Assembly (NCBI GenBank): GCA_017412085.1
Contig: JAFPYS010000019.1
Span: forward strand, 90,155 to 154,154
Direction of reading: 5' to 3'
DNA length: 64,000 bases
From: Alphaproteobacteria bacterium
Lineage (GTDB): Bacteria; Pseudomonadota; Alphaproteobacteria; CAAHEQ01; UBA3637
Under the pieces are notes generated by a model that saw nothing but the letters and a program-made list of their open reading frames with translations, had not been told where the DNA came from and did no database searches. Made by a program: the position numbers and the translations under genes. Positions 7,669-39,695 of this stretch are shown one piece after another (positions within the stretch are counted from its first letter, which is position 1; every line of letters begins with the position of its first letter).

Positions 7669-7697
7669 TTTAAACGCCTTTGCTGGGCGTTTTTTTA
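7669..7697. terminator. bidirectional rho-independent terminator (tRNA-Glu on the plus strand, ABC transporter on the minus strand)
   Basis: Hairpin AACGCC-TTTGCT-GGCGTT flanked by an A-run upstream and a T-run downstream. Confidence 0.6.
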
Positions 7698-9473
7698 TTT
7701 CAATTGTGTTTTATAAAGGGATGCATACACGGAATCCGGATTGGCCAACAATTGGTCATGTGTTCCCATTTCCTTAATTTCCCCGTGATCGATCACAACA
7801 ATATTATCGGCATTTTTAACGGTGGACAAACGGTGGGCAATGATAAACACAGTCCGGTCTTTCATTAAGTTATAAATGGCCTGTTGCACAATCTCTTCTG
7901 ATTTATTATCCAAAGCGGATGTAGCCTCATCCAATATCACAATCGGTGCATTTTTCAAGAATGCCCGCGCAATGGCCACACGTTGCTTTTGTCCGCCGGA
8001 CAACTTTGTGCCGCGCTCCCCAATTTCAGAGTCTAAACCATTAGGTAGAGATTCAATAAATTCATCCAAACAGGCGTTATGGACTGCTTTTTTGACTTCT
8101 TCCGCTGTTGCATCTGCTTTGCCCAATAAAATGTTCTCTCTAATTGTACCAGCAAACAAAATATTATCTTGGAATACAATAGCAATATGATTGCGTAAAT
8201 CATCTAAATCAAGCTCTTTAACATTGATCCCGTCAATTTGGACAGATCCTTGCGTCACGTCATAAAAACGCGGTAAAAGTGTTACCAAAGTAGACTTACC
8301 ACCACCAGAATTCCCGACCAACGCAATTGTCTTGCCTTTATGAATTTCTAGATTAATGTCTTTCAAGACTGGGCGCCCCTTTTCATACTCAAACCATACA
8401 TGATCAAACACAATCTTATTGATTCCTTTAATATATCTTGGATGTTCACAGTTATGAATGGAAGGAATCGCCTCCAAACTGTCAAACACGCGGTCCATTG
8501 CCAAAAGCGACATCTGAAGCTTTGAATAGTTGCTTCCAATAGACTTGATTGGATGATAAAGCATCAACAAAGCTGTGATGAAGGACACAAATCCTCCAGG
8601 TGTTAACTTGTTGGATGTAATCAGATAGCTGCCCAACCAGATTACCCCTGCAATACCAATAGACACAATAAAGTGCATCATGGGCGTTAACATACCCGTC
8701 TTTTTGGTCATATTCATCCCTAATTTAAAGACTGAACGTAATGTTTCATTAAATTTATCACTGGCATATTTATAAAGATTGAAGGATGTAACAACTTTAT
8801 TACCCATAAACGCCTCGTTATAATGGGTCATAACGCGGGCTCCGGAAAATACTGTTTTATCCATGATGGACTTAATTTTACGCCGCAATCCAGCCAATGG
8901 TAAGAAAGCACCAAACATGACAATAATAGCAATAATGGACAATTGCCATGAGTTCCAAATTAAGACAAACACCAAAGAAATAGACGAAAATAAGCGAGTT
9001 GTAAATAGTTTTAGATTAGAAAGCAATCCACTACATGCAGTATCTGCATCATGGTTAAAACGTTGGATAACATTACCAGATGTGTTTTTATCAAAGAATT
9101 TTGCATCATTATGGATAAGTTTTTGGAACAAATCCTTCTTTAAATCCATTGTAATCTTTTGACCAACCCATGTATTTAAATATGTGGCAGCATAGTTTAA
9201 CAGACTTTGGGCAACGCTAAAGACAATGATAAGAGCTGGAATTAAAGAGGTTGCCTGCACACTCTTTTCAATCATCACCGTATCCATATAGGGTTTCAAT
9301 ACCCAAGCAATTGCTGCATCCATTGCACCCAACGGCAATGTTACTAATATCGCCAATATTGCCCGAAAGAGATATGGTTTAACATATGGATAAATCTTTC
9401 GATAATTGCGCACAAGATTTGTTTCTGTTAATTTTAATGGTAGTTTCATCCACGACCCTTCTCTTAAAGACAT
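7695..9473 (-). CDS. ABC transporter permease/ATPase fusion, MsbA-like lipid or glycolipid exporter
   Basis: 592 aa with six predicted TM helices, then Walker A GNSGGGKST, ABC signature LSGGQKQR and Walker B ILDEATSALD. Confidence 0.85.
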   Translation of the reverse strand: MSLREGSWMKLPLKLTETNLVRNYRKIYPYVKPYLFRAILAILVTLPLGAMDAAIAWVLKPYMDTVMIEKSVQATSLIPALIIVFSVAQSLLNYAATYLNTWVGQKITMDLKKDLFQKLIHNDAKFFDKNTSGNVIQRFNHDADTACSGLLSNLKLFTTRLFSSISLVFVLIWNSWQLSIIAIIVMFGAFLPLAGLRRKIKSIMDKTVFSGARVMTHYNEAFMGNKVVTSFNLYKYASDKFNETLRSVFKLGMNMTKKTGMLTPMMHFIVSIGIAGVIWLGSYLITSNKLTPGGFVSFITALLMLYHPIKSIGSNYSKLQMSLLAMDRVFDSLEAIPSIHNCEHPRYIKGINKIVFDHVWFEYEKGRPVLKDINLEIHKGKTIALVGNSGGGKSTLVTLLPRFYDVTQGSVQIDGINVKELDLDDLRNHIAIVFQDNILFAGTIRENILLGKADATAEEVKKAVHNACLDEFIESLPNGLDSEIGERGTKLSGGQKQRVAIARAFLKNAPIVILDEATSALDNKSEEIVQQAIYNLMKDRTVFIIAHRLSTVKNADNIVVIDHGEIKEMGTHDQLLANPDSVYASLYKTQLK

Positions 9474-9522
9474 GCTATTTTATCATGATTTCTATCCAAT
9501 TGCAAGTGCAAATGCAAAAAAT

Positions 9523-10677
9523 TTATGTCTTATGGCTATTATTCTTTTTTTTATGATGGATCCAAATGGGAATTCCAAAGAGATATATTTTTTTAATAGT
9601 TCGACGTATATTCCTTTTGATTTTAATGATGGGAATACCAAGGATATAGAGTTTCTTTTTGCGATTACTTTTTATAAATTCATAAAGACGCCAAACAAAA
9701 CGGGGACGTTTTTCCAAATGTTCTATTTTTTGCAATAACAGCATATTTTGTACATTAAGTTTAGCTAGTATTTGATATAAATTGTTTAACTTATCAGTTT
9801 TTTTCTGTAAGTCCCCAACAGATTGTTTAATTTTTTCGAACTCATTTTCTTGCCCTGTCAGACAATTTTGAACTTGCTTATCAAATTTTGTAAAAATAGT
9901 CTTCAGAACAATTCCCAAATCTTCTGGTAAAACATATTTTAACCATAGCTCTGTTAATGGATAAAATACATTATCTAATGGTTTGTGTCCGGCGTAATGA
10001 ATTAAATTTTTATTACGGCTCTCGCTTAATTCAGCATAGTCCTTCCACTCATAAACATTGAAATAGTTCCACCGATAATCAGCATAAATGACATTATCTT
10101 GGCAGACTGCATTAAATATATCCTGTTCAGCATATTTTGTGCTTGGATTTTTTAAACGATGTTCATTCAATTTTACCAATAACTTATCTTGGCGTATTTT
10201 TTTCAAGTTTAATAACATAATACCACAATTAAAATAAAGATTTGGGTTTGTTTTTTTGGTTTCAATATCTTCTTTTTCCACCACTAAATCCGGAACAATT
10301 GCCGCATAATGATTCCCTAGAGTAATATTGTAAAAATCAGCTATATCATCAGTTGCAATTATATCACCATCAAGATATAAAACTTTATCCTCTTTCAATA
10401 AATCAGCAATTATAAATTTAAAATAAACGGCAGAAGTTATATAGGGATGCTTAAAATTCATATCTTTGTAGATGTTTTTTTGTCGCAAGATTATAATTTC
10501 AACATTTTTACTTAAAAATTGTGAAAATTGAGCCACAGAAGTGTCAGATAAATCCACAGCAATAATATAAATCCTTAGTTTTTCTTTTTGGGTTTTGACA
10601 AGAGAATTTATAGCAGTCTTTGTTAACAAGACATAATTTTCATCACAAATAAAACAGATGTTCATTTTATGATCCAT
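9523..10677 (-). CDS. family 8 glycosyltransferase (LPS alpha-galactosyl/glucosyltransferase-like) with a C-terminal coiled-coil and duplicated LGIPI-KIK tail
   Basis: Its N-terminal half carries the GT8 hallmarks ICFICDENY and YLDGDIIATDD (DxD). The last 45 aa read LYILGIPIIKIKRN...IYLFGIPIWIHHKK. Confidence 0.75.
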   Translation of the reverse strand: MDHKMNICFICDENYVLLTKTAINSLVKTQKEKLRIYIIAVDLSDTSVAQFSQFLSKNVEIIILRQKNIYKDMNFKHPYITSAVYFKFIIADLLKEDKVLYLDGDIIATDDIADFYNITLGNHYAAIVPDLVVEKEDIETKKTNPNLYFNCGIMLLNLKKIRQDKLLVKLNEHRLKNPSTKYAEQDIFNAVCQDNVIYADYRWNYFNVYEWKDYAELSESRNKNLIHYAGHKPLDNVFYPLTELWLKYVLPEDLGIVLKTIFTKFDKQVQNCLTGQENEFEKIKQSVGDLQKKTDKLNNLYQILAKLNVQNMLLLQKIEHLEKRPRFVWRLYEFIKSNRKKKLYILGIPIIKIKRNIRRTIKKIYLFGIPIWIHHKKKNNSHKT

Positions 10678-10692
10678 TATCTTTACTCCAAA

Positions 10693-12855
10693 TTAACGAC
10701 AAATCTTTTTTAGTACAGGAATTCCTAAAAAATAGTACCGAATTTTGGTGTGTGATGAATTTGTTTTTATCTTTAAGATAGGAATTCCCAAAACTTTTAT
10801 TTTTGCTTTGTTTTGCTTTCTCTTATAACTGAACAATGGAATCAATCCAAACAGATAGCTTTTCATTTTATTCATCTCCTTCTTTGTTGTTAATAATGTT
10901 TGATGATTTAGATGGTGCTCCAATAATGATGTAAAATATTGTGCAATCCATTCTTGTTTTTCAAGTTTTGCTCCCAACTGAATTGCTTTGTTTAAAGGCA
11001 TTTTTAAGAATGAATAATGAACTAAATTCTGAGCATCCAACGCTGTTAACTGGTGGTATTGACCGTAATTTTGAAAGAGTGCTGTTATCACATCTGCTTT
11101 GACTGCAGCTGTATTCGACGATATCCCTCCCAGTCTATAACAAATAATAAATGGCTCAATCATTGTAATTCGTTTAGCGGCCTGTAACATCTTATACATA
11201 AAGGCTGTGTCAGAAGATACCTTATAATCTAAATCATAAAGTCCTAATTCTTTCATCACATCAGTTTTAATTAAAAATGTTTGATGACAAGCATGCTGAC
11301 CGAAGATCAATGAACGAGTTTGATAACAACTCCACAAACTTTTCACATCCATTGTTTTCTCATCAATAGATTTTGCACTTGCACAACACGCATCTGCATC
11401 TTGTTCTTCAGCCTTTTTCACCAACCATTCTAATCCCCGATCATCACAATAAAAATCATCTGAGTTCAAAACAACCACATATTTCCCCTTGGCCTTTAAA
11501 ATGCCTTTATTAATGGCGTCATACAGCCCCCTATCTGGTTCAGAATAATACGTAATCCACCCCTTTTCTTTATATTCTTTTAAGACATCTAATGTGCCAT
11601 CTTTTGAACCACCATCTATCACAATATGTTCAATATTCTTATACGTTTGATTATGAGCGCTAGTAATACTTTGAATAAAGGTTTTTTCGCGATTTTGTTT
11701 AATTAAATTAAATGTGGGTGTAATAATTGTAACGAGTGGTTTCTGATTTTTACGTTTTTCAACCTCTTCCATTTTATTTAAAATAACATCAACTGTTTTT
11801 TCCCAAGAAAACAGTTTGGAACGTTTCAGACCATTCTGGGCCATTTCATCACGATATTTTTTATCAAAATAATATTTTTCATAGGCTTTTACGTGTTGTT
11901 CGTCACTATCCCAATCGATCATTTGTCCCGCATCACCAACAACTTCCGGTAAACTAGTGTTATTAGATGTAATGACAGGACAACCACAGGCCATAGCCTC
12001 CAAGGGAGGCATACCAAATCCTTCATATTGCGAGGTATAAACAAACCATTCAGCATTGCTGTATAGGACTTCCAAATCTTCATCGTCCACATAACCAGCC
12101 CGAATAATTTTATCTTTATATTTCGAAAAATTTGGAATTTGTTCAGCCCATTTTTCAGCATCTTGCATTACATCTTTACCTGCGATAACATAGACCATAT
12201 TATCAATTTTATTTTGGTCAATAAACTCAAGAAATGTTTTAATACACCGCAGCAAATTTTTTCTGGGATCTAAAGAAGAACAAGAAAAAATAAATTTTTT
12301 ATTCAATGGAATATGATATTTATCTAATATCTTTTTTAATAAGTTTTTATCTTTATTCGGTTTATATGAAAAATTTGCTGCATTTGGAGCAACTATCATA
12401 TTTTTTTCATCGATCTGTGGCCAATACTTTAAAAAATCACGCTTTGTATAACGAGAAACAACAAAATAAAAATCATCCTCTCTGAACGAATTGACTAATT
12501 CACCAAACCAACTATTTGCTCTTCCAAAATAACGGGGCAATAAAAATGGGATGCAATCATGTAAAATAGTGTACCGAGAAATGTGAGGATACTGACGAAT
12601 AAAATCGGGTATTTTATAACTCGGTGATAAAAAAACATCTATTTTTGAAAAATCTCTCCCTTTATAAAAAATGTGATCTTCAGGAAAAGATTTGGTAAGC
12701 ATAGAAAGATCTTTTAGATGAGCTTGTTCTTCAAGATATAGATACAAATTAACGTTCCTTTTTCGAAATTCATTAAATATATTTTGTAAAACGAAAAAAA
12801 TTCCGGAACGACTTCCTAACTTTCCCAACAAACGGACATCCAAGCAAATATTCAT
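10693..12855 (-). CDS. bifunctional glycosyltransferase with N-terminal GT4 (group 1) and C-terminal GT2 domains
   Basis: GT4 motif [33 protein letters not shown], then GT2 motif VTIITPTFN...[11 protein letters not shown]. The C-terminal tail has three LGIPI-type repeats. Its ATG overlaps the stop of the upstream gene (ATGA). Confidence 0.8.
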
Positions 12856-15128
12856 TTTTTATTCCTTTTCCCTAAATTATTAATTAAATATTTTTCCAAT
12901 CGTTCACAAAAACTGGATTTATAATAGAAGAATAAATTTTGCTGTTCCTTCTCCTTAGCAGATAATTGAAAATGATTCTTTGCGTAATAATCTAGAGTTT
13001 TTATGAGGTGTTCTTTATTTTTAATAATATTGGGTAATAAATTCTCTTTGCCTAAATATGGATCAACGACATCCAAAACATGTCCATATTTTTGACAATC
13101 TTCTGCATCGTTAAGCGAATAAAAAAGAACAGGCTTTTCTTGGAAAAAGAATTCAAAACACATTGATGAATAATCCGTTATTAACAAAGATGCTATTTGT
13201 TTTATTTTGAAAATATCATCTTCACCAACTAAATCAATATTCATTTTCTGTAAAACGGGAGACAAAAGATCTGCAACAGAATGATGAAGGGCTATTTTAA
13301 TTTTGATATTATGAACATTCTTCTTAATACAATCCAAAATATCACATATATTCCTTACATATTGACTATCTTTAAGATTTTGAATTTGGGAAAGATAACG
13401 TCTTGTTGTAAAGAAAATAAGAATAAACTTTTCTGATTGCTCCAGTGCAGAATTATGAATACCATCCCAACGCATCAAACCATTTTTGATAATATCTTGA
13501 GTTTTAAAATTCCCTCGTTTAATAAATAATTGTTTTTCCATATCATTAGAAACCAAAACTTTATCAAAGATGTTTTTACCATAAACGTTGGGCATAATGA
13601 AATCCGGTTTAAAAAAAGTAACACCATGTTGCATAAAAATAGAGGTCATATGAGATGTATTTTTAACAATATTATGAAACCCAAAAGGAATAGCTGTAAT
13701 AGCTTGGAAACTATCAAAAACATATCTTAATCTAGGTACTAAAAACAAAAAACACAATTTTAAACGCCATGTTGGAGTAGTCCCAGAATTCCAAAAGATA
13801 ACATGTTTACCATATTTTCGAGCTAATTCTTGACGATATGGTGACTGCGAGTTCAATATGTAATAAGGAACTAATTTCCATTTTTTTTGATCATATAGAT
13901 ATTTAAAAAAAGTAAAATTATCTTGAATGTTGGCATTTGCTTCAAAAATGTTATCCATCAGCAATACAACATTGCGTTTAAACGGAATGCGATTAACGTT
14001 TTTCAAAATCTTTTCAAAAAAGTTAGATTTTTTTCTATTGGGATTATTTAATTTTATTTTTAACAATAAAAGACATCCTAATAAATATATTTTTATTTTA
14101 CCTGGCTTTTCCCTGATTTTAATAATTGGCAAAAAATTAAATAATTTATAGGTGGTTACATCGGAAATTTTTTCAAAATGGGATTGAATACTTTTTTGAT
14201 TAACAATTGCTTTTTCCTCTATCCAATCCAGTATTTTGGTTCTTTCTTTGGACCATTTGGCATAACCAGTTTGGATATATTTTATTGCATTTTCCTGAAT
14301 TTTTCTGATATTCCCCAATTGAATTGGTTGTGGATTTTGGGGATCATACAAATAGCCATTTACACCGTTTGTAATATATTCATTCATTGTTGGATTATTT
14401 GGAGCAATCACACATCTCCCCATAGCCATTGCTTCCAAAAAGCTCATTCCAATCCCTTCGTATAATCTGGGGGCAATATAAATTGCTGATTTCTGTTGTA
14501 TTTGCAACATTTCTTCTTTTGTATTAAACCATTCAGAATAAGTTATCTTCCATTTTGAATCTGGTGAGGGATCCATAAAAGTATGAGCTGGGTCTAAAGC
14601 CTTATGAATATGTAAGCGAGTGATTGAATTTCCCATCAAAAGCTTCTCAATAAGAAGTACGTTTATTGGGGTAATTCTTTGCCAGAAAAAAACAGATTTT
14701 GTATCCCCCATATTACCTATTTTTTGAGAGGGTTCTGGAAAATATTGGATATAGTGTGAAGAAAAACCGAGTTTACTCAATTCTTCATGCAATGTACGGC
14801 TGAAATTAATAATTTGAGTAAAACGATATTCGTACCAAATAGGATTATTCCGACTGGGAATACCATCATACATCGGGAAAAAAACACTTTTTTTAAAGGA
14901 AATAAGTTTTTTTAGTTTCTCTAAAGAAGGCATGATTTGCAACAAGACCAATATATCATATTGTTTTCCTTTCAATGGAGCAAAATGGGAATTTATCTCA
15001 TCCTTATATGGATCAAATGAAAACACATCTACAGTATATTTTTTTTCTAATACAGATAATAAAAATAAATTTGATTTGGTTTTATTGTGATAGGCGTGGC
15101 CAATATACAGTAGCTTTTTCTTTTTCAT
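12852..15128 (-). CDS. GT4 glycosyltransferase fused to a TagF-like CDP-glycerol glycerophosphotransferase domain
   Basis: GT4 motif YEGIGMSFLEAMAMGRCVIAPNNPTMNEYITNG in the N-terminal third. The C-terminal region carries the TagB/TagF hallmark ITDYSSMCFEFFFQEKPVLFY. An internal linker has LPIIKIREK...IYLLGCLLLLKIK motifs. Confidence 0.7.
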   Translation of the reverse strand: MKKKKLLYIGHAYHNKTKSNLFLLSVLEKKYTVDVFSFDPYKDEINSHFAPLKGKQYDILVLLQIMPSLEKLKKLISFKKSVFFPMYDGIPSRNNPIWYEYRFTQIINFSRTLHEELSKLGFSSHYIQYFPEPSQKIGNMGDTKSVFFWQRITPINVLLIEKLLMGNSITRLHIHKALDPAHTFMDPSPDSKWKITYSEWFNTKEEMLQIQQKSAIYIAPRLYEGIGMSFLEAMAMGRCVIAPNNPTMNEYITNGVNGYLYDPQNPQPIQLGNIRKIQENAIKYIQTGYAKWSKERTKILDWIEEKAIVNQKSIQSHFEKISDVTTYKLFNFLPIIKIREKPGKIKIYLLGCLLLLKIKLNNPNRKKSNFFEKILKNVNRIPFKRNVVLLMDNIFEANANIQDNFTFFKYLYDQKKWKLVPYYILNSQSPYRQELARKYGKHVIFWNSGTTPTWRLKLCFLFLVPRLRYVFDSFQAITAIPFGFHNIVKNTSHMTSIFMQHGVTFFKPDFIMPNVYGKNIFDKVLVSNDMEKQLFIKRGNFKTQDIIKNGLMRWDGIHNSALEQSEKFILIFFTTRRYLSQIQNLKDSQYVRNICDILDCIKKNVHNIKIKIALHHSVADLLSPVLQKMNIDLVGEDDIFKIKQIASLLITDYSSMCFEFFFQEKPVLFYSLNDAEDCQKYGHVLDVVDPYLGKENLLPNIIKNKEHLIKTLDYYAKNHFQLSAKEKEQQNLFFYYKSSFCERLEKYLINNLGKRNKK

Positions 15129-15138
15129 TTTTACTCTT

Positions 15139-16317
15139 TTACTTTAAATCGAAAATTTGTTGTGTGGTTTTATCCCAGGTGAATTGTTGCGCGCGCTGGA
15201 GACCTTTTAGCGATAATTCCTGGCGTTTTGAAGGATTACTATATAAATCCCCCATGACATGGGCCATCTTTTTTGCATCTGTTTCTGGCACATATAGTGC
15301 GACATCGCCCCCTACTTCCGGTAAGGAAGAATTGTGGCATGTGATAACAGGCGTACCGCATTGCATCGCCTCTAAGACAGGCAACCCAAAGCCTTCGTAT
15401 AAACTGGGATAAAGAAAAGCAGTTGCTTCAGAATAAAGTGCTGGCATGTCTGAATCAGCAACAAAACCCGTGCAGATAATCTTATTTGCGTATTCAGGAT
15501 AGTTTTGAATTTTTTCTTGTAATTTTTCATAATGACGACCTTTAGGGCCTGCAAAAACCAACGAAATATCCTTTGCTTCTATCTGATTTAAGAATTTTAC
15601 AAATGAATTTAAAATGTGTATAAAATTTTTTCTAGGATTGTGGTCTGAAACCGCCAAAAAATACTTTTGCGTCGGGATATGATATTTTTCTTTAATAGCA
15701 TTTGATTTTGAAGGTTTAAATTTAGAATCAGCTGCTAAATATACCACTTTCGTATTTTTATTGATATAATCGGGTCGAAATTTAAAAAAATCAATCTTTG
15801 TTGCATCAGAAACACAGATAACTTCATCAGCTTTCACTTGTTTAATCCAGGAACGATACTTCTTTACAAAACCAGGAGAACAGGTTTCTGGCATAATCAA
15901 GGGAATTAAATCATGAATAAACATTCTTGTTTTAATCTGGCTTTTATAAATAATTGGAGAAATGGGAGAAAATAAACTAAGGTATTCATCATATTGCCTT
16001 AATTGCTTCATATATTCATGAAAGTATTTTTGAGTCAAAAAATAACAATATGCTTTTTTATAAAGATTATATTTTTGTGTTGTCTTTTTTAGGTACGGCA
16101 TTCTGACAATATTAGGAACCAAATATCCAAGTCCTTTGTCTTCTAAATATTTTACTGGATCGACACCTTTTTTTGTCGTAACAATCGGGTAAACTTCATA
16201 CTCTTTTTGTTTGGAAATACGCTTCAAAACTTCCAAAGAAACACGACAAATCCCCGTCTCTCGCCCCGCACTCATTAATAACTGCTCAATATCATAAAGA
16301 AGCTTGATTTTTTTCAT
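15139..16317 (-). CDS. GT4 (group 1) glycosyltransferase
   Basis: Motif YPSLYEGFGLPVLEAMQCGTPVITCHNSSLPEVGGD. Start set at the ATG at 16317, which overlaps the stop of the cytidylyltransferase gene as ATGA. Confidence 0.8.
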   Translation of the reverse strand: MKKIKLLYDIEQLLMSAGRETGICRVSLEVLKRISKQKEYEVYPIVTTKKGVDPVKYLEDKGLGYLVPNIVRMPYLKKTTQKYNLYKKAYCYFLTQKYFHEYMKQLRQYDEYLSLFSPISPIIYKSQIKTRMFIHDLIPLIMPETCSPGFVKKYRSWIKQVKADEVICVSDATKIDFFKFRPDYINKNTKVVYLAADSKFKPSKSNAIKEKYHIPTQKYFLAVSDHNPRKNFIHILNSFVKFLNQIEAKDISLVFAGPKGRHYEKLQEKIQNYPEYANKIICTGFVADSDMPALYSEATAFLYPSLYEGFGLPVLEAMQCGTPVITCHNSSLPEVGGDVALYVPETDAKKMAHVMGDLYSNPSKRQELSLKGLQRAQQFTWDKTTQQIFDLK

Positions 16318-16748
16318 TGCTGATTCCATTTCTTTAAAATCCAACTAGATGAATTTGCCTTATGAGAACCGCCAATACCAAAGACTTTTTCAACATGACA
16401 TTCTTGACATACATCATCTTCGCGAATGTTCTCTTTTCCTCGATCTCCCCCATTCGCGAATACCAATACATCATGGGGATACATTTGTCGCACTTTACGA
16501 ATTCCATCACTGGCCGAGTTATCTGAATCATCAAAACCTAACGCACAAATAACTCCTTTTAAATTTTCGCAAATTGTTTTTCGTGTATTGAAGTTTTGAA
16601 AAGCTTTTCCCTTCTTACGGATTAACCATTCATCGGAATTAACCAAAACAACTACACCATCACTTGCCTCCGCCGAGGCCTTTATCATTTCAATATGCCC
16701 CTCATGAATGGGATCAAATCCTCCGCTGACAATATAATATTTTGCCAT
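16314..16748 (-). CDS. cytidylyltransferase-fold nucleotidyltransferase (TagD-like or HldE domain II-like)
   Basis: 144 aa with the (H/T)xGH motif SGGFDPIHEGH, and NSDEW...KGK and LVFANGGD segments that align to HldE domain II (FDILHAGH, NSD...KG, LVKGGDY). Confidence 0.7.
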   Translation of the reverse strand: MAKYYIVSGGFDPIHEGHIEMIKASAEASDGVVVLVNSDEWLIRKKGKAFQNFNTRKTICENLKGVICALGFDDSDNSASDGIRKVRQMYPHDVLVFANGGDRGKENIREDDVCQECHVEKVFGIGGSHKANSSSWILKKWNQQ

Positions 16749-16978
16749 TTGTTTTCCCTTTATAGATTCAAATCAAAACACATTATGTTGTGTTTTCTTG
16801 GAGAAGATTAAAACATACATTTTATACTAAGTCAAGAAAAAAATATAATATGAATATAATTTTATGTATTTTAATATGAAATTTCAAAATTATTAAAAAA
16901 TTTCAATGTATTAAAAATATTACCATTCAATTATTCAAAAGAGACTAGGTATAAAAAAGCATACAGTAGTATGTAAAA
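16749..16978 (-). promoter_or_regulatory. AT-rich (~85%) intergenic region, likely the promoter/leader of the glycosyltransferase operon
   Basis: 230 bp with no ORF and multiple TATAAT-like hexamers, immediately upstream of the first gene of a run of five overlapping or tightly spaced genes. Confidence 0.35.
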
Positions 16979-17230
16979 TTATTGACGTAATGCTTGGTCA
17001 ATTGCCTTAGATAATTGATCCGCGCAAGATGTGCCCTTCCCCGCGCAATCGTTGCCACGCAGAACATCTGCCACTTGTTTAGCATCTTTGCCTTCGATTA
17101 GTTTGCCAATCGCCAGTAAATTACCAGGACATCCACCTAAAAAACGAACATTATGTAACTTTCCATCTTCTATATCAAAATGGATTTCTTTAGAACAAAC
17201 CAATTGTGTACGATATACATAATGTGTCAT
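16979..17230 (-). CDS. TSCPD-domain small four-Cys protein
   Basis: 83 aa with GGCPGNL and GKGTSCADQL motifs that match the TSCPD signature. Lies 8 nt downstream of the helicase gene. Confidence 0.55.
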   Translation of the reverse strand: MTHYVYRTQLVCSKEIHFDIEDGKLHNVRFLGGCPGNLLAIGKLIEGKDAKQVADVLRGNDCAGKGTSCADQLSKAIDQALRQ

Positions 17231-17238
17231 ATTGCCTC

Positions 17239-19974
17239 CTATACAAATTTATCCAGCACACTTGACCAACGACTTACCTTGTCGGCATAGGTTGTTTGAA
17301 TGCTGGAATAAGCTTTTGCCCTTGATTTTAACATTAACACCCGACCTTCTACGTTGCGTGTGTAAATCACTTTACAATAACCAATATGTTTTTGCCAGTT
17401 ATTTTTAAAAATATTCGCCATTTCTTTGTTTTCAGATAAAATCTCTGGTAAAGCATGATAATCTTTTTGTTGCCACCATTTAACATTTGTATTTTGGCGC
17501 ACCAACAAGTACCTAGGATTATCAATCGGATCCAAGAATTGTTTCATGGCATTAATAAAGACATGATTATCTTTTTGATTTAGGCCGATCGCACTCACTG
17601 TATAATGAACACCTGGAATCTTTTTAACCTTTAGCAACGCTGCTTTTGGGGACGTGTTAATGGCATCTATCTCATATAAACTTTCTAACATCACAAGACC
17701 GATTTGTTCCAACATTTTTTCAGGACGTCCCGCCCTTAGAACTTTCCAAGTCGGAATCAACATAGCCACTATAAATACAGCGATAATTAATCCATATACC
17801 CACAAAGGCGCCATATTATCGTAAGCGATCTTACAGGCTTGATAAGCAAGGAATCCATAAGCGATAAGCATCGTGAAATAAGCATCCACAAAAGGTAATG
17901 TCTTTACTTTATTATTTGTGTCCAGTTCTTGTTTAACAGACCCGATGCCGACTTTTGATTCCTTTACAATTCCTTTTTCCCAAGCTGTTTTTGTTTCCTC
18001 GCGTGTATAAGCAAGTGCTTTTTCATTCAATTCGTCCAATTTCTTTTCTTTTAATTTAGTTGATTTTGTTCCCCATAGACAACGATCCATCCCATTCGTA
18101 ATATCATAAGGCGGCAATAAGCTTGGCGCTTCATAACCAGCAAAGCGACGACTTAAAGATTCAAAATCGCCACCGATATCGCCCTCTTCTCCCTTCCAAT
18201 TATCCACAATATTAAACACTTTGATGTTTGCCAGGTGCCAAATATGCGAAATCTTATCCGGATGATTTTTATCGACACGGATGGCGCGTCCCCGCATTTG
18301 GTTTGAAAGCATATAAGATGCCACGGCACTAGACAACACCAACGAGTTAATACTTGGAGCATCCCAACCTTCGCCCAACAAAGCCTGTGTCCCAACCATA
18401 ATCGTCAAATGACCACCATTAAACAAGTCTGTAATTAAATCCACAATCTTGGATTTTGCCTTTTCCTTTGGCTTAACCGTCACATAATCTGGATAATATT
18501 TAAAGGATGAAAAAGTTACATCGGACTTGTTCAAATTGGCTTTTTCCATTAAATCGACCAAAGGTTTTTCCGCATTTTTTGGAAGTAAGATAATTTGTCC
18601 GGTTAAAATACCAATACTGGCTTTTGGCAAATGAAGTGCCTCCAAGTGTCTGAAAATCGGTACCACACCCAAAGCATCTACCTTAGTCTCAAAGGCATCA
18701 TGCTTAATCAAATCGGCCAAAATTACCATCCGCAAGTCAGCTCCTAACAGGCTATGCTCACGTTTTACAATTTCCTCAATGGCGTCTAATTTCCCGAGAC
18801 TGCGAGCCAATGTTTGTGCAACCGAAGCATTATTTTGAATTTGCACAGATTTGTTTTCAATCAAGTTTGCCTTGGCCGCTTTTTGATGCAGAGAGTTAAT
18901 TTGATCGGCCAATTCGGGATACTTTTCCCCGTGTTTAAAAATTAAACCATTTAACACACGTTCGATCTCTGGTAATGTCAAGCGAGGCAACTCTTCGCCA
19001 GTTGCCTGAAAAATTTCCAAAAATGGCTTGGCAATTTCTTTCTTTTGAGTTTTTAAATAGCTTGACAAAGCAAGATAAAATTCTGGATCATCAAACAATT
19101 CCACCAAAAAAGGATCTGGATTATTCCAAAAAGAAAGCTGTTGAACAGCCGCGCCAAATTCTTCGTTTTTTAAAAAATCATCTACAAACGCTTTTGCCGC
19201 TTGTTCATGCTGAGCCAAAGCTTGTTTTTCTTCTTCGCGCAAATGAGCAAAGTAAATCAAGTCTTGATGTGGACATAAATCCCCAGCCTGCACCAACTCA
19301 GGGATGCTGATTTCGGCATCAACGGGACCACATAAAGCTTCATACCGATCCCATTCGTGCCGATCCACATCATAGGGAGGCGTTGCCGTTAAAGCCACAG
19401 TTTTTTTAAGGCTCATGTGCTCCATCAAATATTCCAAAGCCTTCCACCATTCTTTGCGCAGGTGATGGGCTTCATCCAAACACAGCACTTCGATCTTGGC
19501 TTTCTTTAAAATCTCGACCAACTTTAACGCTTTTTCTTCGTTTAAGCGTGACAATTTTTGAGCGCGCTTTTCCGCCTGCTCTTCCAAGGCGGACACTTCC
19601 TCGTCCGTTAAATCTTCTTTGACATCCTTTTCCACTTGACCGCTTAAGCCCGCCAACAATCCTTGATAGGTTGAAAGGGTGATTGTTTTGGGCGCCAAGA
19701 TATTTGTGGAAATCATGTCATCCGCAATCTTTTTGTTGGTCAAAAAGGCCTGTTTTAAACGGGATGCCCATTGATGTTTAATCGTGATTGTCGGCGTTAA
19801 AATCAAACAAGGTTTTGCAATACGGCGCAAAACCTCCAATCCCAAGATGGTTTTGCCGGCGCCAGGGGCCGCCACAATGTGTAATTTTTCGTCTTCAATG
19901 TGATTGTCCAAATCGTCCAAAATCGCCTGTTGATAGGATCGCCATTTGCCTTGAAATTGTAAATCTTTAAACAT
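17239..19974 (-). CDS. SF2 DEAD/DEAH-box helicase-family protein with a C-terminal membrane-associated extension
   Basis: 911 aa. Motif I AAPGAGKT, motif II LDEAHH, motif III TATP, motif VI QMRGRAIR. The C-terminal 300 aa contain two predicted TM helices (FTMLIAYGFLAYQACKIAY and LWVYGLIIAVFIVAMLIPTW). Confidence 0.8.
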   Translation of the reverse strand: MFKDLQFQGKWRSYQQAILDDLDNHIEDEKLHIVAAPGAGKTILGLEVLRRIAKPCLILTPTITIKHQWASRLKQAFLTNKKIADDMISTNILAPKTITLSTYQGLLAGLSGQVEKDVKEDLTDEEVSALEEQAEKRAQKLSRLNEEKALKLVEILKKAKIEVLCLDEAHHLRKEWWKALEYLMEHMSLKKTVALTATPPYDVDRHEWDRYEALCGPVDAEISIPELVQAGDLCPHQDLIYFAHLREEEKQALAQHEQAAKAFVDDFLKNEEFGAAVQQLSFWNNPDPFLVELFDDPEFYLALSSYLKTQKKEIAKPFLEIFQATGEELPRLTLPEIERVLNGLIFKHGEKYPELADQINSLHQKAAKANLIENKSVQIQNNASVAQTLARSLGKLDAIEEIVKREHSLLGADLRMVILADLIKHDAFETKVDALGVVPIFRHLEALHLPKASIGILTGQIILLPKNAEKPLVDLMEKANLNKSDVTFSSFKYYPDYVTVKPKEKAKSKIVDLITDLFNGGHLTIMVGTQALLGEGWDAPSINSLVLSSAVASYMLSNQMRGRAIRVDKNHPDKISHIWHLANIKVFNIVDNWKGEEGDIGGDFESLSRRFAGYEAPSLLPPYDITNGMDRCLWGTKSTKLKEKKLDELNEKALAYTREETKTAWEKGIVKESKVGIGSVKQELDTNNKVKTLPFVDAYFTMLIAYGFLAYQACKIAYDNMAPLWVYGLIIAVFIVAMLIPTWKVLRAGRPEKMLEQIGLVMLESLYEIDAINTSPKAALLKVKKIPGVHYTVSAIGLNQKDNHVFINAMKQFLDPIDNPRYLLVRQNTNVKWWQQKDYHALPEILSENKEMANIFKNNWQKHIGYCKVIYTRNVEGRVLMLKSRAKAYSSIQTTYADKVSRWSSVLDKFV

Positions 19975-38255: not shown

Positions 38256-39695
38256 TTATCCCACGGATCCTTCTAATTGAATACCAATTAATTTTTGCGT
38301 CTCTATTGCAAATTCAAGCGGTAATTTTTGCATAATTTCCCGACAAAAACCGTTTACAATCAATCCAACTGCCTCTTCCGCTGAGAGCCCACGTTGCATT
38401 GTATAAAACAATTGTTCCTCACTGATTTTGCTTGTTGTCGCCTCATGTTCAATTGTGGCTGTTTCATTGGCACACTGCATTACGGGAATTGTATGTGCGC
38501 CGCATCTATCCCCAATCAACAAACTATCGCATTTGCTAACATTTTTCGCATTTTCGGCTCCAGGAGACATTTTCACCAAGCCACGATAAGTATTGGAGCT
38601 AAAGCCCGCCGAAATACCTTTTGAAATAATTGTGGACGTTGTATTTTTCCCAAGATGGATCATCTTGGTCCCCGTATCGGCCTGTTGATGGTTATTTGTT
38701 AATGCGACTGAATAAAACTCTCCAACGGCATTATCACCCTTCAAAATACAACTTGGGTATTTCCATGTGATGGCCGATCCAGTTTCAACCTGCGTCCATG
38801 ACAATTTAGCATCGTTCATCACCAAACCACGCTTAGTCACCAAATTATACACGCCACCCTTACCATTTTTGTCACCAGGATACCAGTTTTGAACGGTGGA
38901 ATATTTTACATTAGCTCTATCCTTAACCACAATTTCCACAATTGCCGCGTGCAGTTGATTTTCATCACGCTGTGGCGCTGTGCAGCCTTCAAGATAACTG
39001 ACAGAGGACTCCTCATCTGCAATAATTAAGGTTCGTTCAAATTGTCCCGCCTGGCGTGCATTAATACGGAAATAGCTGGATAATTCCATTGGGCACTGTA
39101 CTCCTTTGGGAACATAGACAAAAGACCCATCCGAAAACACCGCGCTGTTTAGACATGCAAAAAAGTTATCTGTATATGGCACTACCGAACCCAAATATTC
39201 TTTAACCAATTCTGGATACTCATGCACCGCCTCAGAAAACGAACAGAACAAAATGCCGCGCTTTTTCAACTCTTCCTTATATGTCGTCCCGATGGATGTA
39301 CTGTCAAAAATAGCATCCACAGCCACACCAGTTAGCGCTTCCTGTTCTTTTAATGGAATGCCCAATTTCTCATAAGTCTTCAACACCTCCGGATTTACTT
39401 CATCCAAGGATTTTGGCGCTTTTTTATGGGGCGAACTATAATAATAAATATTTTGATAATCAATTGGATCATAATGTCCATGGAACCAATGAGGCTCTGT
39501 CATCGTTTGCCAATGACGAAAAGCCTTTAAACGGAAATCCAACAACCAATCCGGCTCATCCTTCTTTTTAGAAATAAAACGAATGACATCTTCATTTAAA
39601 CCCTTGGGAGCATATTCCGTTTGCACAACAGTCTCAAACCCCTCTTTATAAGGGCTATTCACAACTTCCAACAGATCTGATTGTTCTTTTTTCAT
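38256..39695 (-). CDS. sufB: Fe-S cluster assembly scaffold SufB
   Basis: 479 aa with an N-terminal SufB-specific region and C-terminal [11 protein letters not shown]...; adjacent to sufC. Confidence 0.9.

Follow-up and report, generated by a model that had tools for sequence, protein, structure and literature searches.

A tandem β-hairpin domain on glycan-assembly enzymes of uncultured gut and rumen Alphaproteobacteria: a candidate membrane anchor and co-localisation module

Glycan-assembly enzymes are known to require peripheral attachment to the membrane, and a membrane tail is in itself nothing unusual among them; the characterised solutions that we found, those of LgtC, WbdD and TarL/TagF, are amphipathic α-helices. 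The C-terminal 25 residues of LgtC, a Neisseria lipooligosaccharide galactosyltransferase of glycosyltransferase (GT) family 8, are predicted to form a monotopic amphipathic helix that holds the protein at the inner membrane; this appendix is dispensable for catalysis, and its truncation solubilises the enzyme (PMC9952996). WbdD consists of catalytic domains, a coiled-coil ruler and then a C-terminal membrane helix with a polymerase recruitment site (PMC11231755), while Staphylococcus aureus TarL (α4/α6) and Staphylococcus epidermidis TagF are monotopic, with a membrane helix immediately N-terminal to the GT-B module and basic clusters that contact head groups, the electropositive residues of TarL also retaining the lipid-linked acceptor (PMC10901376). 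Here we analyse a stretch of 64,000 nucleotides from an alphaproteobacterial assembly (GCA_017412085.1, contig JAFPYS010000019.1, positions 90,155 to 154,154; hereafter the window), in which three glycosyltransferases of one operon share a reiterated peptide. We find that the peptide recurs as one unit of a small autonomous β domain in which two to three β-hairpins stand in tandem (~60 residues, period 19–21 residues); we compare this domain below with these helical anchors.

The unit, of ~20 residues, reads K-x-Φ-Φ-(L/F)-G-(I/L)-P-Φ-Φ-K-Φ-K (Φ, hydrophobic) and is present twice in a GT8 enzyme, three times in a bifunctional GT4-GT2 enzyme and twice in a GT4-TagF-like fusion, all encoded by consecutive genes on the minus strand. 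The complete three-hairpin domain is that of GT4-GT2 (residues 660–720; 10696..10878), delimited by AlphaFold2 (AF2), by a column profile and by a hidden Markov model (HMM), A5, which gives it 79 bits, this tail being itself in the profile; its units 1, 2 and 3 lie at 10816–10872, 10762–10809 and 10702–10746. GT8, whose C-terminal end reads ...KKKLYILGIPIIKIKRNIRRTIKKIYLFGIPIWIHHKKKNNSHKT, has a domain (residues 338–384; 9526..9666; A5, 40.7 bits over profile positions 15–61) of two units of unit-2/3 type, with cores at 9613–9660 (KKLYILGIPIIKIKR) and 9550–9597 (IKKIYLFGIPIWIHHK). In the GT4-TagF-like protein the domain is internal (residues 324–371, containing ...TYKLFNFLPIIKIREKPGKIKIYLLGCLLLLKIK...; 14016..14159; 37.9 bits over positions 4–51) and comprises two hairpins of unit-1/2 type between the GT4 and Glyphos_transf modules, directly N-terminal to the TagF-like module; the cores occupy 14106–14153 (TYKLFNFLPIIKIREK) and 14052–14099 (KIKIYLLGCLLLLKIK, Pro to Leu). 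This second unit, LLGCLLLLKIK, lacks the Pro that is ~93–97% conserved elsewhere, and the segment that follows it, KKSNFFEKILKNVNRIPFKR, might form a short amphipathic helix in place of unit 3.

A preliminary description of this DNA had reported a short motif reiterated in, and specific to, these three enzymes and missing from the fourth glycosyltransferase of the set. Every peptide that it quoted is present where it was placed, and shuffling, six-frame scanning and the A5 profile agree on the specificity. Across all six frames of the window, [LF]G[IL]P[IVL] matches four tail copies and only two unrelated sites, one at 39351 and the other the catalytic EGFGLPVLEA of a GT4, which is the only GxP match of the fourth glycosyltransferase. 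The strict core [LFIVMY]G[ILV]P[IVL][LIWF] occurs five times in the four glycosyltransferases (four tails, one catalytic), against an expectation of 0.017 when their residues are shuffled (five were reached in 0 of 20,000 shuffles) and of 0.0014 when only the K/I-rich last 70 residues are shuffled. A5, built almost wholly from foreign sequences, matches only the three carriers among six-frame, stop-to-stop window open reading frames (ORFs) of at least 40 residues. The fourth glycosyltransferase, with no hairpin unit and no A5 match, thus serves as an internal negative control, and the lineage-wide K/I bias of C-termini, which the preliminary description had named as grounds for refuting its motif, is not borne out within the window. 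Nor are the units recent DNA repeats, since their identity to one another at the DNA level is only 0.37–0.63.

What had been described as a short motif proved to be a part of something larger. HMMER, run exhaustively over 1.84 billion cluster representatives with a profile made from the three window tails, returned 118 at E ≤ 1e-3 and five at E ≤ 1e-10, so that the family numbers at least 118 clusters (50% identity) and is no tag private to this locus. The repetition is regular: of 201 adjacent unit pairs among the 118 hits, 176 have their Pro residues 19, 20 or 21 positions apart, and three is the commonest copy number. Each unit position also bears its own signature, Φ-K-L-F-x-F-(I/L)-P-(L/I) in unit 1, (W/Y)-K-(I/L)-(L/F)-G-(I/L)-P-(V/I)-(L/F/W)-K in unit 2 and K-Y-Y-Φ-(F/L)-G-(I/L)-P-(V/I/L)-Φ-K in unit 3, so that apparently degenerate copies such as LFGLIP and LFNFLP are the ordinary form of unit 1 and not decayed; by these signatures GT4-GT2 is complete (1-2-3), GT8 has units 2-3 and GT4-TagF units 1-2. 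Close GT8 homologues retain both the putative coiled coil and two motif copies (for example LYVFGMPVFKIKQQKVYLFGIPVWKVK, at 53% identity), and the tail is kept in GT8 proteins and GT8-FkbM fusions labelled 'Alphaproteobacteria' at 35–44% identity, the nearest relatives with a source name being 'MAG: Alphaproteobacteria bacterium' (MAG, metagenome-assembled genome). Together with the low DNA identity between units and the substitution rates of free copies given below, this retention shows selection acting on protein rather than on DNA.

The preliminary description recognised no known domain in the repeat, and we find none in Pfam, NCBIfam or the PDB. Scanned alone against Pfam-A and NCBIfam at E ≤ 10, the window tails give only noise, and the full proteins match catalytic families only; ten strong family members, free copies included, match no relevant Pfam or NCBIfam family, and 67 long members match catalytic families only (among the families listed, 25 of 33). 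The PDB yields neither a sequence match nor a fold match. Literature searches on the motif strings returned a single irrelevant plant proteomics match, and those on β-hairpin membrane anchors of glycosyltransferases returned nothing matching; the β-hairpin-repeat domain, its promiscuity and its fused and split forms were thus not found in the libraries or literature searched.

AF2 modelling of the GT4-GT2 tail with a 71-sequence alignment yields six strands paired into three hairpins that turn at (L/F)-G (predicted local distance difference test, pLDDT, 93.4; predicted template modelling score, pTM, 0.70). In the full GT8 model the tail strands (342–345, 348–355, 361–366 and 369–372) follow a 72-residue helix, the tail having a pLDDT of 61–69. 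Foldseek found nothing in the PDB at E ≤ 1e-3 for the tail model; its best geometric matches are single-layer-sheet mutants of OspA (TMq ~0.52, root mean square deviation ~4 Å, E ~0.9). An amphipathic helix, implied by the helical-wheel analysis that the preliminary description recommended, is rejected: AF2 predicts strands and the helical moment (muH at 100°) of the window units is low, at 0.14–0.37, against 0.52–0.55 in the helix-type tails of distant GT8 homologues, so that such an analysis would mislead. A transmembrane helix is likewise rejected, there being no hydrophobic stretch of transmembrane length in any of the four glycosyltransferases (highest 19-residue Kyte-Doolittle mean ≤1.23).

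Column statistics over 71 domains give this predicted sheet a marked polarity. At the hairpin tips (columns 9–16, 29–35 and 50–56), which follow the pattern Φ-Φ-(L/F)-G-(I/L)-P-Φ-Φ, the charged residues K, R, D and E are at 0% in most columns and at no more than 4% in any, with a mean Kyte-Doolittle value of ~3–4 at positions other than Gly and Pro. Lys or Arg makes up 56–93% of the columns that bracket the tips (8, 19, 28, 36, 38, 47 and 57), Tyr, Trp and Phe are enriched at columns 7, 16, 18, 27, 35, 48 and 49, and the distal loops (columns 22–23 and 40–44) are rich in Gly and Asn. The domain has a mean net charge of +0.19 per residue, and in the window tails K and R number 15, 15 and 11, and D and E 0, 0 and 1, in GT8, GT4-GT2 and GT4-TagF-like, respectively. 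Hydrophobicity is therefore graded along the strands, from greasy tips to a basic base, which is the pattern to be expected of hairpin tips that insert shallowly into one membrane leaflet.

How does such a domain compare with the helical anchors? The window GT8 shares with LgtC its catalytic family, its fold and a short C-terminal appendix that is both basic and hydrophobic. The appendices themselves differ: that of LgtC is one α-helix of ~25 residues, whereas the window proteins have two to three β-hairpins whose Gly-x-Pro turns are conserved; in GT8 a helix of ~70 residues precedes them, and they show no sequence similarity to the LgtC tail. More distant GT8 homologues have the same putative coiled coil and then a tail, GWSFRIGRLLTWIPRKLL, with a helical moment of 0.52–0.55. 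GT8 resembles the terminator WbdD (Escherichia coli O9a; Klebsiella pneumoniae O3 and O5) in the order of its parts, namely a GT-A domain (1–246), a long helix (251–322; window 9712–9927) that is continuous in the AF2 monomer (pLDDT ~92) and kept in close homologues, and the hairpin tail. WbdD differs in its amphipathic-helix anchor and in its catalytic modules, a kinase and a methyltransferase, and its loci differ from the window, where no Wzm/Wzt genes were seen and an MsbA/PglK-like ABC gene is adjacent. By this analogy GT8 could be a length-setting terminator, akin to the WbdD-type ruler, rather than an ordinary chain-building glycosyltransferase.

The hairpin domain of the GT4-TagF-like protein (residues 324–371) occupies the same position as the membrane helix of TarL and TagF, ahead of the phosphotransferase module; there the elements are helical instead of β-hairpins, and TarL gains avidity from its tetramer where the window has tandem repeats. 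The central single-layer β-sheet of OspA is a geometric analogue only, a flat meander of consecutive hairpins with no homology to the domain; it is polar and exposed to solvent, with globular domains capping it, whereas the sheet predicted here has hydrophobic tips and no caps. Another soluble glycosyltransferase with a tail, the α-1,3/4-fucosyltransferase of Helicobacter pylori, has dimerising heptad repeats at its C-terminus followed by a basic, hydrophobic membrane tail, which is helical and unrelated in sequence to the hairpin domain; related hairpin-domain loci also encode GT10 fucosyltransferases. Taken against anchors of the LgtC, TarL and WbdD type, the domain thus has their basic and hydrophobic appendix at the chain end, or flanking the catalytic module, of a soluble enzyme; it does not have their α-helical conformation and high helical moment.

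The domain is carried by proteins of unrelated folds, all of them in glycan assembly. Among the 67 long members (families listed, 25 of 33) the carriers are GT2 (38), GT8 (14), GT4 (9) and TupA-like ATP-grasp (3), with two each of DUF4422 and aldo-keto reductase and one each of Stealth, Capsule_synth, RgpF, GT61, pyruvyltransferase, radical SAM, FUT8-like, HAD, FkbM and DUF6492. Across the 118 representatives the domain is C-terminal in 77, N-terminal in 10 and internal in six; a further 25, of 110 residues or fewer and mostly domain, are a mixture of true free copies and possible gene fragments. In one subfamily (P0098, P0114, P0120, P0122, P0130, P0152 and P0203) a three-hairpin domain stands at the N-terminus, before a long predicted coiled coil that ends in a conserved ..DRIRVYHAE(L/V)LERLDNLP.., and no enzyme domain could be recognised; these proteins may act as scaffolds or represent fragments of something larger.

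A degenerate DNA pattern encoding KYYxxGxPxxK, which is biased to unit-3-type copies, picked out 45 stretches in GTDB species genomes, and the HMM confirmed 31 of them; the ~14 others, in low-GC Bacilli, Actinomarina, Planctomycetales and elsewhere, were rejected by the HMM as chance matches. Nearly all confirmed loci belong to MAGs of uncultured gut and rumen Alphaproteobacteria (the RUG and RGIG series, 'uncultured Azospirillum sp.' and Ca. Enterousia). HMM-verified copies beyond that class were seen in one MAG of a gut Sutterella and one of Gastranaerophilales (Melainabacteria) (loci L020, 1609–3411, and L024, 2–1954), which suggests horizontal spread with glycan loci among gut bacteria. 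Loci often hold several carriers: three of the four glycosyltransferases in the window, and two or three ORFs in L039, L049, L050, L053 and L021.

The domain also exists as a free protein. Seven free genes could be delimited in loci, encoding 63–71 residues, and a final word-indexed search returned mostly free, domain-only proteins of ~70 residues or fewer. The free genes stand 13–16 bp upstream of a GT2 or GT8 gene, and their loci share the gene kit of the window (GT2, GT8, GT10, Stealth-GT8, TagF-like and small cytidylyltransferase). Synonymous sites of the free copies are saturated and, where computable, the ratio of non-synonymous to synonymous substitution rates (dN/dS) is 0.06–0.27, which marks them as real genes.

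Enzymes beside the free genes carry a different tail. In five of six independent free-copy locus types (L002/L014, L005, L008, L016 and L028, with L052 the exception), adjacent enzymes end in one unit-1-type hairpin and an acidic terminus (..LFGFIPLLSIEEK/SIEDK/SVEEQ; other tails of this kind read ..KKYTLFGFIPLFTIEEK, ..KWQLFGFISLLSIEEE and ..RYYLFGFIPLLSVEEQ). These single-hairpin enzymes are GT2, GT8 and SGNH-like proteins, and L016 has three in succession, ending SIEDK/SIEEK. Free genes and such neighbours lie together at L008, 1883–4624 (the free gene at 1883–2092); L016, 3625–7321; L002, 8001–9239; L005, 8001–9715; and L014, 244–1475. Verified loci without a free copy have fused, basic, multi-unit tails (two to three units in the window) and, within the ~8 kb read, no single-hairpin acidic tail. 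The comparison spans 8-kb stretches of loci that are mutually related and is uncorrected for phylogeny; so read, the distribution looks like split and fused versions of one system. In the window itself, HMM searches of six-frame ORFs of at least 40 residues found no free three-hairpin protein, so that the dedicated partner envisaged in the preliminary description may exist elsewhere in this form and is absent here.

On balance we lean towards reading the hairpin domain as a monotopic membrane anchor and co-localisation module that would replace the amphipathic helices of LgtC, WbdD and TarL/TagF; the preliminary description had suggested a membrane-association or complex-assembly tag co-localising the enzymes of the pathway, a proposal that sequence and models together favour. 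We lean to the anchor because many unrelated glycan-enzyme folds carry the domain, because it takes the place that amphipathic-helix anchors have elsewhere, because the tips are hydrophobic with a Lys/Arg collar, and because of the fused versus split distribution. As we picture it, the hydrophobic hairpin tips would enter the cytoplasmic leaflet of the inner membrane to a depth of ~10 Å, with the Lys/Arg collar contacting anionic phospholipid head groups and the aromatic residues lying at the interface. Avidity would come from the two or three hairpins per chain, and coiled-coil oligomerisation of GT8 would add more. Otherwise soluble glycan enzymes would in this way be kept at the membrane, beside the lipid-linked acceptor and one another, each of the three enzymes of the window bearing its own fused anchor; the glycan would be teichoic-acid-like or lipooligosaccharide-like and would leave through the MsbA/PglK-like ABC transporter encoded next to the enzymes. 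The edges of a hairpin sheet are free, so the domain probably also lets enzymes associate laterally.

Several points weigh against an anchor. The case for it is drawn wholly from sequence statistics and AF2, and the single-layer sheet that AF2 predicts is not expected to be stable alone, so that in reality the domain could form a soluble oligomer with its tips buried. The free proteins of 63–71 residues, being domain only, have nothing to anchor, and the single-hairpin tails end in acidic residues (..LSIEEK) that are unfavourable for anionic membranes. Furthermore, the domain is found on enzymes whose chemistry needs no membrane (aldo-keto reductase, HAD hydrolase), and the fourth glycosyltransferase of the operon manages without it.

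Some of these same observations would be explained if the domain were chiefly a protein–protein docking module, comparable to cohesin and dockerin and working by β-sheet completion, with membrane contact secondary or absent. Hairpin domains of different enzymes, joined elsewhere by a free three-hairpin hub, would pair edge to edge into a multi-enzyme assembly line, an arrangement that does not exclude anchoring. The complementary distribution argues for it, free basic hubs accompanying single acidic hairpins in five of six locus types while verified loci lacking a free copy show fused basic tails and, over the same ~8 kb, no single acidic hairpins; so do the purifying selection on free genes and their placement 13–16 bp ahead of a glycosyltransferase gene, the tagging of several enzymes per locus, and the carriers that need no membrane contact. 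In WbdD, too, the membrane-proximal C-terminal region recruits the polymerase (PMC11231755). Yet charge-free tips, a Lys/Arg collar and an aromatic belt constitute an interfacial signature that a soluble interface does not need, and the window tails are all strongly basic (+11 to +15) and have no acidic partner; because all are basic, their like charges would repel unless a membrane or polyanion intervened. As the domain's chief function, docking is the main rival to anchoring, though we consider it rather improbable.

Anchoring and docking might also be combined, a model that we put forward tentatively, as a possibility, for glycan assembly lines built around a split sheet. The free, basic three-hairpin mini-protein (63–71 residues) would sit in the membrane interface as a hub, into which enzymes with single acidic hairpins (..LFGFIPLLSIEEK-COOH) would plug by β-sheet completion and charge complementarity. 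Other lineages, that of the window among them, would have fused hub and tag, their anchors of two to three hairpins zipping enzymes together laterally, and GT8 would couple such docking to a coiled-coil ruler that sets chain length.

An unlikely alternative is that the Lys-rich sheet binds a polyanion or acceptor, holding the growing poly(alditol-phosphate) or the pyrophosphate-lipid acceptor and so raising processivity. The loci regularly join the domain with TagF-like and Stealth phosphotransferases and small cytidylyltransferases, implying anionic products, the net positive charge is high, and electropositive residues of TarL do retain a lipid-linked acceptor (PMC10901376). The most conserved feature, however, is the hydrophobic tip and not the basic residues alone; GT2, GT8 and methyltransferase enzymes carry the domain too, some of its loci show no phosphotransferase within the region read, and the single-hairpin tails are acidic. 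It is very improbable that the tail is a C-terminal sorting or secretion signal that a dedicated enzyme would process, as with PEP-CTERM or LPXTG, which it superficially resembles in its Pro-bearing signature, hydrophobic residues and basic cluster at the C-terminus: the architecture contradicts this, the hydrophobic run being only ~7–8 residues with no transmembrane helix between signature and basic cluster, the units tandem and also N-terminal and internal, the carriers nucleotide-sugar enzymes that must act in the cytoplasm, and sortase- or exosortase-type Pfam families absent among the listed hits of the L001–L010 gene tables. Least probable of all, and refuted, is an artefact of composition or of repeated DNA, whether K/I/L/F-rich low-complexity ends of AT-rich genes or an intergenic repeat that happens to be translated. 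The island is indeed AT-rich (GC 0.29–0.35) and K, I and L abound in the tails, but shuffles that keep this composition expect 0.0014–0.017 matches against 4–5 observed, the window has no other match, the units share little DNA identity, AF2 is confident, free copies are under purifying selection, and 118 significant matches among 1.84 billion representatives share conserved Gly and Pro at a spacing of 19–21.

The operon to which the three carriers belong lies on the minus strand and is transcribed in the order cytidylyltransferase-like protein, GT4, GT4-TagF-like, GT4-GT2, GT8 and then ABC transporter. The cytidylyltransferase-like protein (16314..16748, 144 residues, PF01467) is a candidate supplier of a CDP-alditol donor (CDP, cytidine diphosphate) to the TagF-like module, and the same small gene recurs in the related hairpin-domain loci L002, L005 and L008. 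The GT4 without a hairpin unit (15139..16344, PF00534) is the fourth glycosyltransferase; its longest ORF starts at TTG and gives 401 residues, whereas the gene as publicly called on the identical contig has 396 (L001, 4349–5539), which leaves the start uncertain by five codons; the window is identical to ENA metagenome scaffold ERZ28653967 XIEF21-1_SAMN15829886 scaffold_215.

The GT4-TagF-like fusion, a putative CDP-glycerol/alditol-phosphate transferase of 758 residues (12852..15128), has PF00534 at 201–269 and PF04464 at 517–737. The latter match, at 58.9 bits against a gathering cut-off of 22.1 and covering profile positions 131–353 of 367, places the C-terminal module in the TagF-like glycerophosphotransferase family, while NCBIfam TarF, at 30.9 bits against a cut-off of 550, shows that it is not that equivalog. 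GT4-GT2 (10693..12855, 720 residues) has PF00534 at 177–344 and PF00535 at 376–503. GT8 (9523..10677, 384 residues) belongs to its family by PF01501 (E 4e-38; 131.8 bits against a cut-off of 24.3) and by an LgtC-like GT-A fold: AF2 (pLDDT 87) lays it out as the GT-A catalytic domain (1–246), the long helix (251–322), a helix at 326–336 and the two-hairpin tail, and the nearest solved folds by Foldseek are WbbM (6u4b, E 1e-20) and LgtC (1ss9, E 3e-18; 1g9r, E 9e-18). Directly downstream of the glycosyltransferases, an MsbA/PglK-like fused ABC exporter (7695..9473, minus strand; PF00664 and PF00005 on the called gene) is a candidate flippase or exporter of the lipid-linked product.

The operon forms a GC-poor island (window 9500–17000; GC 0.29–0.35 against ~0.40 in the flanks) with tight or overlapping junctions: the GT4-GT2 start overlaps the GT4-TagF stop at 12852–12855, and the end of the cytidylyltransferase gene overlaps the longest ORF of the fourth glycosyltransferase. 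Together these features suggest translational coupling and, possibly, horizontal acquisition. Directly upstream (16979–19974) lie genes for a TSCPD-domain protein of 83 residues and a ResIII/SNF2-like helicase of 911 residues with a hydrophobic C-terminal region; both proteins seem unrelated to the hairpin system.

Whether it anchors or docks, a portable β-hairpin-repeat domain of ~60 residues, found on at least 12 unrelated enzyme folds, would meet in a structurally distinct way the need to hold glycan-assembly enzymes at the membrane. The domain might be a compact tag for sending soluble enzymes to bacterial membranes or to one another, and removing the tail should aid soluble expression, as the 25-residue truncation did for LgtC (PMC9952996). 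Its HMM would serve as a handle for surface-glycan loci in uncultured gut and rumen Alphaproteobacteria, and the fused versus split distribution suggests how assembly lines of several glycan enzymes might be built and exchanged, a model directly open to test. Should the split-sheet model hold, bacteria would have at the membrane surface a counterpart of cohesin and dockerin with which to assemble and reshuffle polysaccharide pathways.

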